The position numbers and the translations under genes are program-made. A DNA stretch of 61,593 bases from a virus (Duplodnaviria > Caudoviricetes), in IMG/VR virus record IMGVR_UViG_3300022074_000038, positions 1 through 61,593 of that record. One strand, given 5' to 3'. This document shows, piece after piece, positions 8,141 to 13,442 of the stretch (its first letter is position 1; the number at the start of each line of letters is the position of its first letter). Below the pieces are notes generated by a model. It saw only the letters and a program-made list of their open reading frames with translations, searched no databases and was not told the origin of the DNA.

Positions 8141-9892
8141 TTAGTTTGAGTCACCCTCATATCGGCAGGTCCACATGGTCAAGCTATACTTCTTTCCCCC
8201 ACGCAAAGGCAGAACCTTATGTCCATGTGTTACCATAGATGGAAACAAAATGCACTGTCCAACTTTTACATTCTTGTTTGTAAACTCTTGTCTGGGGAAA
8301 ACAAGCTCCGCACCAGCGTAATTGTCGTTGAGCTTTACGCTGCCTGTGAACAAAGAGGCATCTGTGTGCAGGCCTAATTCTGTCTGTGTGTCCATAGAAT
8401 AACGCATAGTAAAAGCATCACGCAATCCAAGGTAGGCTTCTGGATGCCAATGCTTCTCGCATATCTTACTAAGCTTATCTGCCCATTGTTCTGATATCTC
8501 GTCCCAAAATCCTAGTTCTTTAAGCCTTATCTCTTGCGCTGGAAACTTATCACCATCAAGCTCTCCCCATCTACCAAGGCTTTCTGATGCTTCAATGTAT
8601 CGTTGACACTGGGCCTCTGACATAAATTCAGCTACCAGTATTTCTGGTGCAACCTCTTCGTACTTAAGACCCTTATGGTATGTAGGAGATAAAACCTCTG
8701 CCTCTTCTACATATCCAAACTTATCTGCAAGATTTTTAAATCTTACCTTTGCGTCATCTCCACCGTTGCCGTGGTAAATACATGGGCAGCACATGCCGTT
8801 TGATAGTTGACCGTTAATAATCTTAATATCGTCATCACATTGAAAGATGTAGCCTTCGTAATCTAAATTAGCAGAAGCCGTGGATTGCCAGTCAGATGAT
8901 AAAAATCTTTTTTGCATCCATAGTTGATCATCAGAGTCATTGGGCACTGCCTCATTAAGAAACTCTTTGAGCGTACTCACTTTACCTATGTACGCGCCGC
9001 TGTTTAAGTACCTATAGATTGTTGACAAAGGAAATTCTGAGGCCATCGTCGCATCGGGCCAACAATTTTTTTCTGCTGCGAATATGATATTCGCACCCAT
9101 GTCCTCATATCTCTCTAGGATAGTAGGCAGTGTGTCGTTTATGATAACATCATACCCATCCACAAATAGAACCACATCCCCATCATGCAGGGATTCAAGG
9201 TGGTTGCGTACAAGATTGATCTTTTGACCGCCACCTTGGGCTTCCATTGTGCCACCAGACCAAATTACTTGACGACCCAAATTTAAGTACGTTATCCCGT
9301 GCGCTTTTGCAGATTGCTCTAAAGCCCACATTTTCCTTTGATCTGTTCCAACTGTAAGTACATGTACCTGCATTGATTCCCCCTCAATCGTGCTTGGTCT
9401 AACTTCTCTAGGTATCTGCTTAACCACCTCTGGTGTAAAGAAAAAGTTCGATTGAACTTTTAACTTAGCAGGCACCCACTCATCTACAGGGATGATAGCA
9501 TCCTTGTAGCCCTCTATCAATCTCTTGGCGGTTTCTGGTCTAATAGCGTAAGCATGACAATTATACCAATAGCCAAGAGTATTAAGGCGGTATCCCAGCC
9601 AAACGCTATCATGCTCTTTCAATAAAGTATCTACCGCACTGGGGTCAATACTGTCGTAGACTGCATCCTCTTCAAGGATTATCCCGTTTCGATTTGACGC
9701 AACTATCTTTTTCCAAACTTCAAGATGGCTTACCGCGCAACCAAACTCCGTAACTAACAGGGGCCTGTCAAGTATTGGATCACGCCACTGCATGTTTCTA
9801 ACACAGCCCGTCTCTTCCTCTACGGTACTCCAGTCTTTTCCCCGTGCATCATACGCAGATCCATGCAGAGAAATCTGATATACTATTGCCAC
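8141..9892 (-). CDS. Multidomain collagen-modifying enzyme: GT25 (COLGALT-like) + PLOD-type glycosyltransferase + 2OG-Fe(II) lysyl-hydroxylase-like domain
   Basis: GT25 motifs WRDPILDRPL..EFGCAVSHLEVW, ILEED, IPVDEWVP. PLOD GT motifs GGGQKI, LFVDGYDV, FAAEKNCWP, YLNSGAYIG, DDQL, HGNG. Oxygenase motifs RY..LGLHTDAS, FPSMVTHGH, KYSL. Confidence 0.85.
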   Translation of the reverse strand: MAIVYQISLHGSAYDARGKDWSTVEEETGCVRNMQWRDPILDRPLLVTEFGCAVSHLEVWKKIVASNRNGIILEEDAVYDSIDPSAVDTLLKEHDSVWLGYRLNTLGYWYNCHAYAIRPETAKRLIEGYKDAIIPVDEWVPAKLKVQSNFFFTPEVVKQIPREVRPSTIEGESMQVHVLTVGTDQRKMWALEQSAKAHGITYLNLGRQVIWSGGTMEAQGGGQKINLVRNHLESLHDGDVVLFVDGYDVIINDTLPTILERYEDMGANIIFAAEKNCWPDATMASEFPLSTIYRYLNSGAYIGKVSTLKEFLNEAVPNDSDDQLWMQKRFLSSDWQSTASANLDYEGYIFQCDDDIKIINGQLSNGMCCPCIYHGNGGDDAKVRFKNLADKFGYVEEAEVLSPTYHKGLKYEEVAPEILVAEFMSEAQCQRYIEASESLGRWGELDGDKFPAQEIRLKELGFWDEISEQWADKLSKICEKHWHPEAYLGLRDAFTMRYSMDTQTELGLHTDASLFTGSVKLNDNYAGAELVFPRQEFTNKNVKVGQCILFPSMVTHGHKVLPLRGGKKYSLTMWTCRYEGDSN

Positions 9893-10425
9893 CTTGGGCC
9901 TTCAAACCATGCAACAAGGCTTTTCCTTGTGCCGCTCGTGATTGGCGAAACTCTATGCTGCAAATAGCTTGGAAAAACTAGAACAGTTCCCTTGAGACGG
10001 GATGAAGCATCTGGCGTTTGGCATTCCGCGAACTCGAAGCCACCCCCCTCATATTCGCTTTGGTCTGAAAGCTGCACAGTTACGCTTAACTTTCTATCTC
10101 TCGCCTCGTTGCCATCCCAATTTACATCTATGTGCCAATCGTAATGACCACCTTTAGTAGCGTGATATTCTGTAAATTGAATATCGCATATATTCTCTAC
10201 TTGGAAATGAAAGGCGTTTTCGTTTGCAGCCTTAACATATTCCCAAAGAATATCTTGAACAGCATCATTGCCGCTCAACCAAGCAACATCGCTCGACCTT
10301 ACGCTTGTGTCTGCATTGTTAAAGGTTGTTGCCGCTTGTGTGTTCAGCTTAGAAGCTTCCGCAAAGATTATTGATAAATCACTATCGGAGAGGCCACCAG
10401 ACCACATCTGCCAGTTTTGTCGCAT
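9883..10425 (-). CDS. 2OG-Fe(II) oxygenase (prolyl-4-hydroxylase/PKHD-type)
   Basis: HYDWHID (HxD), RKLSVTVQLSD, YEGG, FPSYLQHRVSPITSGTRKSLVAW (distal His and Arg). Confidence 0.85.
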   Translation of the reverse strand: MRQNWQMWSGGLSDSDLSIIFAEASKLNTQAATTFNNADTSVRSSDVAWLSGNDAVQDILWEYVKAANENAFHFQVENICDIQFTEYHATKGGHYDWHIDVNWDGNEARDRKLSVTVQLSDQSEYEGGGFEFAECQTPDASSRLKGTVLVFPSYLQHRVSPITSGTRKSLVAWFEGPRWQ

Positions 10426-10447
10426 TAAATGCCCCCCAAATATAAAC

Positions 10448-11231: not shown

Positions 11232-11249
11232 CTTCGTGTCCTTCCACTA

Positions 11250-13442
11250 TTAGCTAATTAATTTTTTGACCTGAGCCTCTAGCTTATCAATCTGGGATTG
11301 CTGCTCCTTGATCGCCTCAACTAAAAGCCCGACCATGTTTCCATATGCTACGCTCTTAAAACCTGTTTCGGCGTTATCTCGAACCGCTTCTGGCAATACC
11401 TTTTCAACGTCTTGAGCAATTACACCCGTAGCTCTTTCTTCAACATCATTATCCCAATCGAACGTAACGCCCCGCAAAAGGCTTACCTTTTCAAGAGCGC
11501 CCTCAATGGTTTCAATGTTCTTTTTGGCCCTGATGTCCGAGGTGCTATTTACATCACCCGTAACGGTAATACCTGTGGAGGTGGTAGCGAGTTTTAACGA
11601 ATTATCATGATAAGCTTGAAAAGCTCCATTATTTATAAATCTAGCTAGGTACTCTGAGCCAGAGGCACCTGTAACCTGTATTTCACTGCCGTTAGTTTGT
11701 ATTTCTAAAACGCCCGTGCCAGCTTCTACGATTTTGCTGTGGTTTCCATCATGGAAAATCTGTAGGTCAGACCCTGCGCCGAATGTCGCCTTTGCATTGT
11801 CTGCAAACTCTAATGCGTTGTCGCTGCTATCCCAAACCACGTTGTAGCTTGCGCCTATAAAGGTAACGTCACCGTTAGCCGTGATCGTACCACTGTTTAC
11901 CTCTAGGCGCTCTGTTCCCGCAGCAACAACGCGCCACTGGTTTTCAGCGTGGAACTGCATGTAGGTGTCAGTGTCACCCGTATGGTATATGGCATCTGCG
12001 AGATATATGTCGGTTACGTTATTTGGACCCGCAGGGCCTGTAGGTCCAGTCGGTCCTGTTGGTCCCGTACCACCAACTTCACCTTTTTGCCCCTTCTGTC
12101 CTTTTTGCCCTGTGGGGCCTGTTGGTCCCGTACCACCAGTACCACCAACTTCACCTTTCTGTCCTTTTTGACCTTTTTGACCCTTCTGCCCTTGTGGGCC
12201 TGTTGGGCCTGTCGGGCCAGTGCCACCTGTACCCCCTACTTCTCCTTTTTGCCCTTTTTGTCCTTGAGGTCCAGTCGGTCCAGTCGGACCCGTTGGTCCC
12301 GTGCTTCCCACTTCACCCTTTTGACCCTTCTGACCTGTCGGACCAGTCGGACCCGTACCACCCGTTCCTCCCACTTCGCCCTTTTGACCCTTTTGACCCT
12401 GTGGCCCCGTTCCACCTGTCGGTCCTTGAGATCCCGTTGGCCCTGTTGGCCCTGTGTTACCCGTAGGCCCTTGCGAACCAACTTCGCCTTTTTGACCCTT
12501 CTGCCCTTGAGGCCCCGTTGGGCCTGTCCCACCAGTCGGTCCTGTTGGACCTGTCGGTCCTGTTGGGCCAGTTGGGCCTGTGCCACCAGTATTACCTACC
12601 TCGCCTTTCTGGCCTTTCTGACCAGTCGGGCCTGTCGGTCCTGTAGGGCCTGTGCCGCCTGTATTACCGACTTCACCTTTCTGGCCCTTCTGACCTGTCG
12701 GACCCGTTGGCCCAGTGCCGCCTGTAGGGCCTGTAGGGCCTGTAGCCCCCACTTCACCTTTTTGGCCCTTTTGTCCTTGGGGTCCATTGGGACCAGTAGG
12801 TCCGTTTGGCCCTGTCGGGCCAGTTGGTCCCGTGGGGCCAGTAGGCCCAGTCGGCCCTTGCAAAGCTGCATTGGCAATCGTCTGCTTTTCCCAAGCAGAA
12901 GCTGTTACATCGTAGACAGGAATAAGGTCAGAAGAAACCGCGTCTGTGCCCGTAGCAAACCCTGTAAGAGAAGATCCTACATTCGCGCTATCCGTAACGT
13001 CAGCGTTGGTTTCTATGGTGTTTAACTTTGTACCATCCGTTGCGATATCGCGTCCATCAACCGTGCCCGTAACTGCCAAGTTACCCGTAACCGTGGCCCC
13101 AGAAGATGTTGCTGCAACCTTGGTAGACCCTGCGTTCTGCAAGATGTTCAGATCACTGGCTACCGCACTGATAAAGACAACAGCATTCCCCGCGAGGCTG
13201 ATGGCGTTATCTGAGTTTGAACTCTCTTGCACAGTCCTTGTAAGGGTTGTGCCAGAAGCGGTATATGTGCCAGTGCCTATTTCAAAGTTAGAAAGTTCTT
13301 CAATGACGTACTGTACTACGTCACCGTTACTAACCCCAGCATCTGCGAAACTCTGAAACCCCGTAGACGCACTGCCAAGTGTGATTGTGCCAGTACCCGT
13401 GGTACTGGTTGTCATCTTGGCTCTGTTAAAGAGCTTCGCCAT
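11250..13442 (-). CDS. Collagen-like tail fibre with C-terminal peptidase S74 intramolecular chaperone
   Basis: 730 aa; 93 uninterrupted Gly-X-Y triplets; C-terminal SDIRAKKNI...[15 protein letters not shown]...[10 protein letters not shown] autocleaving-chaperone signature. Confidence 0.9.
12021..12857 (-). repeat. Collagen Gly-X-Y repeat (GPT-rich, with nine (GQK)2-4-GEV blocks)
   Basis: Counted from the translation: 93 triplets, 21 of them GQK. Confidence 0.95.

Follow-up and report, generated by a model that had tools for sequence, protein, structure and literature searches.

Does a bacteriophage hydroxylate and glycosylate the lysines of its own collagen-like tail fibre, by means of the enzyme families that mature collagen in animals? 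The question is posed by the tail-fibre block of IMG/VR virus record IMGVR_UViG_3300022074_000038 (Duplodnaviria; Caudoviricetes), the whole of which, 61,593 bases with an estimated completeness of 100%, is the window analysed here. It represents the complete genome, ~61.6 kb long, of a marine phage, and its tail-fibre block holds what we term a ‘glyco-collagen’ cassette, with a collagen-like fibre at one end and a large fusion enzyme at the other. These two proteins and their parts are encoded as follows.

11250..13442, minus strand: collagen-like tail fibre, 730 amino acids (aa) (list of open reading frames (ORFs); Pfam Collagen and Peptidase_S74)
12021..12857, minus strand: collagen stalk of the fibre, aa 196-474, 93 Gly-X-Y triplets; proposed substrate
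11379..11540, minus strand: Peptidase_S74 (‘chaperone of endosialidase’) domain of the fibre, aa 635-688 (Pfam, 61.5 bits)
8141..9892, minus strand: predicted trifunctional fusion enzyme, 583 aa (Pfam, solved structures, phrog_61)
9383..9892, minus strand: GT25 (COLGALT-like) domain of the enzyme, aa 1-170; proposed first-sugar transferase
8759..9373, minus strand: PLOD-type glycosyltransferase (GT) domain of the enzyme, aa 174-378; proposed second-sugar transferase
8144..8680, minus strand: lysyl-hydroxylase-type 2-oxoglutarate (2OG)/Fe(II) oxygenase domain of the enzyme, aa 405-583 (L230 and LH3 matches)

We consider it likely that the 583-aa enzyme hydroxylates and glycosylates the lysines in the Y position of the fibre’s triplets. 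This proposal, already made in the preliminary description of the locus, is supported because catalytic residues are kept in all three enzyme domains and because enzyme and collagen co-occur almost perfectly in both directions across unrelated phage backbones.

The enzyme had been read as a fusion of GT25, PLOD-GT and lysyl hydroxylase (LH), and this assignment is upheld by family profiles, solved structures and conserved residues alike. Pfam detects GT_PLOD (E 2e-45, 155.4 bits against a cut-off of 27; 157.7 bits in the genome search), Glyco_transf_25 over profile positions 51-107 of 199 only (E 7.8e-12, 45.9 bits against a cut-off of 24) and, at 26.9 bits just below the cut-off of 27, 2OG-FeII_Oxy_3, while phrog_61 covers nearly the whole protein (E 4.6e-71). 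Among solved structures the fusion matches human LH3 (E 2.5e-35), mimivirus R699 (E 5.9e-28), the LH domain of mimivirus L230 (E 2.3e-9) and COLGALT1 (E 3-5e-6).

The N-terminal domain of ~170 aa aligns with the catalytic C-terminal domain of COLGALT1, in which D436 and D437 form the metal pair, D522 is the catalytic base and E523 anchors the epsilon-amine of hydroxylysine (Hyl) (PMC12987934). The corresponding residues of the fusion are E75/D76, D137 and E138, and in 48 diverse homologues E74, D76 and D137 never vary, the conservation of E138 being at least 90%. For the middle domain the best solved matches are R699 (E 1.2e-28) and LH3 (E 5.5e-26). R699 has been shown experimentally to be a galactosyl-Hyl glucosyltransferase for which a DXXD motif and a Trp are critical, its K62 and H216 touching the first sugar and its E114 the acceptor (PMC9546862, PMC12279948). 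All seven experimentally tested residues of R699 (for the alignment, chain index = residue + 3) recur identically in the fusion, namely W48 as W211, K62 as K224, D83 as D245, Y85 as Y247, D86 as D248, E114 as E274 and H216 as H374, and each is invariant or at least 90% conserved in homologues. The C-terminal region (aa 400-583), finally, matches lysyl hydroxylases and nothing else among solved structures (6/6 hits; L230 at E 2.3e-9, LH3 at E 7e-9), and its iron triad, H509-x-D511 with H558, aligns with those of L230 and LH3 and is invariant both in 60 and in 48 homologues.

Taken together, the catalytic motifs show full or at least 90% conservation, both among 60 distinct homologues that are close or come from cyanophages and among the 48 diverse ones, which reach down to ~28% identity. 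It is therefore hardly credible that the cassette is a decaying acquisition that at present serves no function. Nothing specific points that way beyond the partial Pfam match of the GT25 domain and the sub-threshold Pfam score of the oxygenase domain, and intact homologues are found in the hundreds: an exhaustive search returned 2605 representatives at E<=0.001 and 164 at E<=1e-30, and an annotated collection holds 526 at E<=1e-10. RNA-library contigs from two studies, which match the enzyme, fibre, chaperone and small oxygenase genes of the block at 92-100%, argue weakly in the same direction; they are short, none of them bridges two genes, some bins are uncovered, and DNA carry-over is possible.

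The presumed substrate consists of a conserved N-terminal attachment part (aa 1-195), the collagen stalk, a variable distal part and a C-terminal chaperone domain. Our recount of the stalk gave the same figures as the preliminary description, that is, 93 uninterrupted Gly-X-Y triplets with 21 X-Lys-Gly sites. The most frequent triplets are GPT (35), GQK (21), GGT (12) and GEV (9); every Lys stands in Y as part of GQK (12 GQKGQK and 9 GQKGEV), which makes up 23% of the Y positions, Thr occupies 52 of the 93 Y positions, and all 44 Pro are in X, so that there is not a single X-Pro-Gly site. The fibre is the sole collagen of the genome (Pfam Collagen, E 5e-32), matches many PHROG tail-fibre families and carries a clear Peptidase_S74 domain (E 9.5e-17, 61.5 bits against a cut-off of 22). 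Peptidase_S74 domains are self-cleaving and nucleate trimers, and that of the fibre is likely a C-terminal trimerisation and intramolecular chaperone module. With its long uninterrupted Gly-X-Y run and a trimerisation module, the protein fits what is expected of a collagen triple helix, which is here a prediction from sequence.

At the DNA level, the collagen region at 12055-12854 is built of higher-order tandem repeats with periods of 63, 72, 81 and 90 bases (7-10 triplets; 74-85% match), which suggests that the stalk may have expanded via unequal recombination.

Is the fibre the substrate of the enzyme encoded beside it? The fusion is encoded in 11 of 50,697 phage isolate records, four of which we inspected (CRP-6, S-CAM9, S-PRM1 and S-8S55). 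Roseobacter phage CRP-6, a mosaic roseophage whose enzyme is 55% identical, encodes a collagen fibre of 99 triplets with 26 Lys in Y, followed by a chaperone and then by the fusion. In the T4-like cyanomyophages S-CAM9, S-PRM1 and S-8S55 (enzyme identity 41-42%), a tail fibre of 1452-1830 aa lies directly upstream; in its 55-59 triplets, 22-24 Lys occupy Y and none occupies X, and one or two small 2OG oxygenases stand between it and the fusion. The terminase of the window is nearest (~46%) to those of HTVC027P/HTVC023P-type pelagiphages, phage 023Pt_psg01 and DSL-LC04, and searches for Collagen and GT_PLOD in these four nearest backbone relatives found neither, the same GT_PLOD search being positive in the window. 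The pair of enzyme and collagen is thus present on three unrelated phage backbones and jointly absent from the nearest backbone relatives of one of them. Since unrelated phages share this pairing, it is very probable that the adjoining enzyme has the fibre as its substrate.

The association was quantified in both directions. For the forward test, loci fetched with the enzyme as query were pooled with the four isolate records: a collagen with Lys in Y lies upstream on the same strand in 64/64 loci with at least 3 kb of upstream sequence, and in 80/89 when 1.5 kb is accepted, the nine misses having just 1.5-2.8 kb in view. Homologues common in phages without collagen, which the preliminary description had named as evidence against its proposal, are hence not what these 64 loci display. 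For the reverse test, we scanned with peptide patterns from the collagen stretch of the window, such as GQKGQKGE (more than 597 places matched, 436 were confirmed and the best 80 loci were kept). Where at least 3 kb follow the collagen ORF, 45/46 of these collagen-selected loci have an LH-containing enzyme, as do 31/32 after de-duplication at 90% collagen identity; the enzyme is on the same strand in 47/48 and starts -18 to 5448 bases past the fibre. The co-occurrence with GxK-rich collagens, which had been proposed as a check, accordingly holds both ways.

The lysines themselves are placed with great regularity. Across 15,578 triplets of the collagen-selected fibres, 6102 Lys are in Y and 2 in X, and 6478 sites from 130 distinct collagens have the context G-[Q 44%, D 21%, A 10%]-K-G-[Q 42%, E 24%, D 14%]. 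This context resembles the Xaa-Hyl-Gly rule and the test peptide GAKGEKG of GLT25D1 (PMC12987934). In the sampled fibres Lys accounts for 36% and Thr for 33.7% of Y.

One may object that Lys in Y merely provides the helix with charge and salt bridges, and that the enzyme rides on a mobile fibre module and acts on another virion protein or on a host glycan. Lys-Gly-Glu/Asp is a known helix-stabilising salt-bridge motif, and nine of the 21 Lys sites of the window, being K-G-E, therefore have an explanation that requires no enzyme. Tail-fibre modules do swap as blocks, both among relatives of the window and according to the paper describing CRP-6 (PMC6918029); relatives of the enzyme are named ‘GR25 family glycosyltransferase involved in LPS biosynthesis’ in databases (LPS, lipopolysaccharide); and the PHROGs category is ‘moron, auxiliary metabolic gene and host takeover’. 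We nevertheless regard this alternative as quite improbable, for (i) the nearest characterised relatives of the LH domain are collagen lysyl hydroxylases, (ii) the linkage holds down to ~38-42% enzyme identity while the N- and C-terminal domains of the fibre, the filler triplets, the tip and the chaperone change, (iii) stand-alone phage GT25 genes, taken as a control, have a collagen beside them in 0/6 viral loci, and (iv) Lys reaches 50-60% of Y in some fibres, far above what salt bridges need. Within the lineage of the window the same pattern is seen at close range: the first 195 aa of the fibre are 90-99% identical and the C-terminal part is exchanged, the 122-aa gene and the chaperone gene being exchanged together with the distal part of the fibre, and the Lys motif and the enzyme persist across all of these swaps. 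A role of the enzyme as LPS glycosyltransferase or as metabolic auxiliary gene was rejected on its linkage to collagens.

Several observations weigh against lysine modification of the fibre by this enzyme. In the GT25 domain, the ‘YW’ acceptor motif is half kept, Y494 of COLGALT1 corresponding to Y110 and W495 to N111 in a low-scoring segment of the alignment (the wider family consensus has ‘Y.YW’); the lid loop of COLGALT1 was not located; and the Pfam match is partial, the domain being shorter than the catalytic domain of COLGALT1, although the family consensus carries N-terminal ‘VINL..R.DR’ and ‘ILEDD’ motifs and relatives match nearly the whole GT25 profile. In the LH domain, which falls just short of the Pfam cut-off, K568 stands where L230 and LH3 have the Arg that binds 2OG, and Lys is found there in 58/60 homologues. 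A Lys binds the C5 carboxylate of 2OG in other 2OG oxygenases. The accessory (AC) domain of PLOD is absent, only ~25-30 residues separating the end of GT_PLOD (aa 378) from the start of the LH domain (~aa 405), and for this reason the fusion is not a canonical PLOD; it is predicted to work like PLOD plus COLGALT all the same. As regards the association, the sole enzyme-less locus among those selected by collagen (L203) is a 50-kb contig representing ~32% of a genome; many sampled loci are close relatives, so that the raw counts overstate independence; and the sample is one of Lys-in-Y collagens, Lys-poor ones lying outside it. To these points the salt-bridge explanation of the nine K-G-E sites has to be added.

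We envisage that maturation would proceed in the following way. The stalk offers 21 Lys in Y in the context G-Q-K-G-Q/E. In the host cytoplasm, before the chains fold, these residues would be hydroxylated by the C-terminal domain of the enzyme with Fe(II), 2OG and O2; the N-terminal GT25 domain would then add a first hexose to the new hydroxyl in the manner of COLGALT1, and the middle PLOD-type GT a second hexose in the manner of LH3 and R699, using UDP-sugars of the host. The chains would trimerise afterwards, starting from the C-terminal S74 chaperone domain, and the modified fibre might benefit in stalk stability, shielding from proteases or adhesion.

Which sugars are attached? The glycan had been described as Glc-Gal-like (glucosyl-galactosyl) on Hyl, and that it is exactly this disaccharide, which we take over by analogy with the animal enzymes, appears to us somewhat more doubtful than not. 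The architecture of the enzyme in related loci is informative here. Among 31 de-duplicated collagen-selected clusters with enzyme, 21 have GT25, PLOD-GT and LH. In seven, a protein of ~750 aa has a GT4/GT1-type domain in place of PLOD-GT (order according to Pfam: GT4, GT25, oxygenase) and adjoins fibres in which as many as 247 Lys are found among 439 triplets. Two consist of PLOD-GT and LH alone, of which L148, on the same contig as L091, has a separate GT25 gene and L151 ends at the contig end; one further cluster likewise ends at a contig end. Individual variants are located as follows.

L147 15870-18119, L197 14492-16798 and L136 13475-15739: GT4/GT1-type variant of ~750-770 aa, with GT4/GT1, GT25 and OGFOD2-like/2OG oxygenase domains
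L109 62-2968 and L112 1195-3291: two tandem GT25 domains before PLOD-GT and LH
L091 3778-5658: GT25 as a separate gene ahead of a PLOD-GT and LH protein

In L147, L197 and L136 a small oxygenase follows, and the adjoining fibres have Lys at 50-60% of Y. Among homologues, P0006 has two GT25 domains and P0012 an added methyltransferase, and the long ones (850-1112 aa; ten scanned) consist of GT25, GT_PLOD, ~250-300 aa and then the oxygenase. The constant part is formed by LH and GT25, and the second transferase can be replaced, which fits an order of hydroxylation, first sugar and second sugar. The second sugar would vary, because a GT4/GT1-type domain replaces PLOD-GT in the seven de-duplicated lineages, and to this extent the proposed Glc-Gal has to be relaxed.

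The same variability bears on a further alternative, namely that the enzyme does act on the fibre and performs a different chemistry there: a single Glc-Hyl as made by L230, other hexoses, or glycosylation of Thr in Gly-X-Thr by one of the transferases. Sequence alone does not reveal the donor sugar, the product of L230 is Glc-Hyl, which R699 fails to elongate (PMC9546862), the second GT module is swappable, and GT25 may be doubled (L109, L112) or a gene of its own (L091). Moreover, Thr is the more frequent Y residue in the window and nearly as frequent as Lys across the sampled fibres. Set against this are the catalytic base and the Hyl-amine-anchoring Glu of COLGALT1, both kept in the GT25 domain, the first-sugar and acceptor residues of R699 kept in PLOD-GT, and the fact that the constant partner of the enzyme is Lys rather than Thr (in L111, 80 Lys and 4 Thr in 150 Y), which together render such a different chemistry unlikely. 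We thus retain stepwise hydroxylation and glycosylation of Lys as the preferred reading.

The remaining three genes of the block lie between fibre and enzyme.

10863..11231, minus strand: ORF of 122 aa without family (Pfam, PHROG and NCBIfam negative)
10448..10861, minus strand: tail-fibre assembly chaperone, 137 aa (Pfam Phage_tail_APC, phrog_4628)
9883..10425, minus strand: small 2OG/Fe(II) oxygenase, 180 aa (Pfam 2OG-FeII_Oxy_3)

Does the 180-aa oxygenase add a proline branch to the pathway? It had been called prolyl-hydroxylase-like, a designation that stands at the level of the superfamily (2OG-FeII_Oxy_3, E 1.4e-15, with HxD...H...R present) and not below it: among solved structures PiuC and Sbal_3634, both of PKHD type, come closest (E 2e-5), NCBIfam YbiX-type matches are below cut-off, and its neighbours in the Atlas belong to PiuC clusters or to generic clusters of 2OG oxygenases. 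Since the fibre lacks X-Pro-Gly sites, the protein cannot act here as an animal collagen prolyl 4-hydroxylase (P4H), and a canonical Y-position collagen P4H, to which its relatives do not belong either, was ruled out. The label ‘animal-like’ given to the pathway therefore applies to the lysine branch and not to the proline branch.

The best guess, for which we see about even chances, is that the 180-aa oxygenase hydroxylates the X-position Pro of Gly-Pro-Thr, a step much less certain than those on Lys. 4-Hydroxyproline in X stabilises Gly-Hyp-Thr helices (Hyp, hydroxyproline). Presence of the oxygenase and Pro in X (5% threshold) are concordant in 111/116 loci, and across 14 LH clusters at 75% identity the table is [[8,1],[0,5]] (Fisher p 0.003), which is suggestive; the tree-based test is underpowered, yielding only 5 independent pairs (~3.4 same, 0.1 opposite, p ~0.25). 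A strict link between oxygenase and Pro was rejected in view of five discordant loci: L062 and L146 have the oxygenase and not one Pro in X; L001, L127 and L111 have no small oxygenase despite 6-18% Pro in X. A search for a small oxygenase in CRP-6, run without a positive control, found none.

The 137-aa protein is a tail-fibre assembly chaperone as originally described (Phage_tail_APC, E 4e-13; phrog_4628 ‘tail fiber assembly’, E 5e-27), and CRP-6 gp59 is homologous to it and has the same position. The 122-aa protein had been called a tip protein. Searches of Pfam, PHROG and NCBIfam returned no family for it, and an Atlas model (pLDDT 0.68) moderately resembles distal tail-fibre parts (TM 0.53-0.64), so that it is possibly a distal fibre or tip component, a candidate to be taken as a lead only.

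The five consecutive minus-strand ORFs are separated by gaps of -10 to +22 bases, the enzyme ORF having a GTG start and overlapping that of the 180-aa oxygenase by 10 bases. From the shared orientation and tight spacing we infer an operon, which agrees with the ‘one operon’ of the preliminary description in arrangement; promoter-like (17 vs 18.4) and terminator-like (12 vs 10.7) sites are not above shuffled sequences and lend no support of their own. Elsewhere the window encodes a terminase, a portal, a DNA polymerase, a primase/helicase and a virion-type protein of 2249 aa; a tRNA scan of the window and a search for a terminal repeat were both negative.

Some features of the surroundings may be recorded as well. 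Directly downstream of the enzyme, at 6710-8119 (minus strand), lies an ORF of 469 aa without Pfam or PHROG family, in which protein repeats around ‘GSFA[LV]TGQ’ recur every ~20-25 residues and TRF finds no DNA-level repeat; CRP-6 has a different repeat protein in its place. The 2249-aa ORF at 49071-55820 (minus strand) matches DarB-like antirestriction proteins in PHROG (E 6.6e-46) and, weakly, virion RNA polymerase (E 1.4e-8). In L203 a gene of the tryptophan-halogenase family is located at 16192-17316, ~2.6 kb downstream of the fibre, a setting that recalls the dioxygenase and halogenase neighbourhoods of Iyer et al. 2010 (PMC2938197). Finally, ~1.3 kb upstream of their tail-fibre blocks, S-CAM9 (L082 1100-1931) and S-8S55 (L084 3307-4022) have a tRNA cluster for Gly, Leu, Thr and Pro, three of which (Gly, Pro and Thr) dominate GPT-type collagen.

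Sugar nucleotides would come from the host, because a search of the window for a sugar-nucleotide epimerase found none. S-PRM1 (L083 25293-26084) and S-8S55 (L084 28740-29438) have genes for NAD-dependent epimerases/dehydratases (232-263 aa, Pfam E ~1e-25) 3.6-7 kb downstream of the fusion, which may supply a sugar nucleotide. As to distribution, the 120 homologues listed by the search of the annotated collection are on contigs of at most 59 kb and are named only ‘hypothetical protein’ or ‘GR25 family glycosyltransferase involved in LPS biosynthesis’. A scan of 185,579 species genomes with two narrow peptide patterns yielded at least 6 loci, a lower bound, all on contigs of 2.5-31.6 kb from metagenome-assembled or single-cell genomes. 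Scans with the divergent representatives P0020 and P0079 returned no viral loci.

On a wider and doubtful reading, taken up below, many marine viral genes annotated as ‘P4H / 2OG oxygenase / GT25 auxiliary metabolic genes’ would be genes of virion maturation. According to a virome study of the Baltic, ‘P4HA’ and galE rank among the commonest viral auxiliary genes, and their use ‘remains cryptic’ (PMC9301287); a virion-maturation role would alter how these genes are counted. Furthermore, glycosylated collagen has not yet been producible in bacteria, in part owing to poor expression of human collagen glycosyltransferases (PMC9546862). An enzyme with all three domains that is at home in the bacterial cytoplasm is a candidate tool for this purpose, and the tight G-x-K-G-Q/E motif would be a ready recognition sequence.

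It is tempting to speculate further that the ‘glyco-collagen’ cassette is portable among phages of the ocean’s dominant bacteria and swapped between short-tailed and T4-like backbones, that one enzyme of ~580 aa carries out the full maturation of Lys in the bacterial cytoplasm, that Hyl-glycans rather than bare protein set fibre stability and host adsorption, and that the phage enzymes may be near the root of the PLOD/COLGALT system of giant viruses and animals; we offer this wider picture as a doubtful one when taken as a whole.

How does the proposed pathway compare with known systems? With the collagens Scl and BclA and those of prophage tail fibres, the fibre of the window shares a Gly-X-Y stalk, Thr-rich Y and Pro-rich X positions and a non-collagen trimerisation domain; the collagen part of prokaryotic collagens is in most cases neither hydroxylated nor glycosylated, and phage collagens are described as short (PMC8968730). 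The window differs from them in its high share of Lys in Y, which is higher still in the sampled fibres, and in the dedicated modifying enzyme predicted alongside.

That a prokaryotic dioxygenase hydroxylates a neighbouring collagen-like protein was predicted by Iyer et al. 2010 for other bacterial families of 2OG dioxygenases, with collagen-like and tail-collar proteins as their targets, and our proposal is alike in this respect; the same authors read cyanophage dioxygenase arrays as secondary-metabolite genes, and the accessible part of their article describes neither a PLOD-type LH/GT fusion nor a fibre with Lys in Y (PMC2938197). In the paper on CRP-6, the fibre gene is said to resemble a cyanomyovirus one, and the terms collagen, glycosyltransferase and oxygenase have no occurrence in the main text (PMC6918029). 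Our literature search, with most subscription journals and supplements outside its range, found no account of collagen-fibre modification by a lysyl hydroxylase or glycosyltransferase of a phage.

Closer parallels are offered by mimivirus, with its collagen L71 and the enzymes L230 and R699. There, too, a virus encodes both a collagen and its own Lys-modifying enzymes. The phage system differs from it by a bacterial host, by a tail fibre instead of capsid fibrils as substrate, and by an enzyme gene directly beside that of the presumed substrate; since the host is a bacterium, the chemistry would have to occur in the bacterial cytoplasm. When compared with L230, which we compared by its LH domain alone, and R699, the phage enzyme moreover combines three predicted activities within 583 aa and dispenses with the PLOD accessory domain.

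The animal system of PLOD3/LH3 and COLGALT1 (GLT25D1), in turn, comprises the same three enzyme families, is directed to the same target position, Xaa-Lys-Gly, and has metal-binding and catalytic residues that the phage enzyme keeps. In animals, GT25 is found in a protein of its own, which comprises two domains and enters into a complex with LH3; the accessory domain is part of LH3 (PMC11897130, PMC13382579). In the phage, by contrast, GT25, PLOD-GT and LH are joined in a single polypeptide outside the context of a signal peptide or an endoplasmic reticulum, and Lys replaces the 2OG-binding Arg. The evidence collected here thus supports the prediction that collagen lysine maturation, known from animals and mimivirus, also takes place in bacteriophages, where it would be carried out by a compact fusion encoded beside its substrate and would find a new setting in the tail fibres of abundant marine phage groups.

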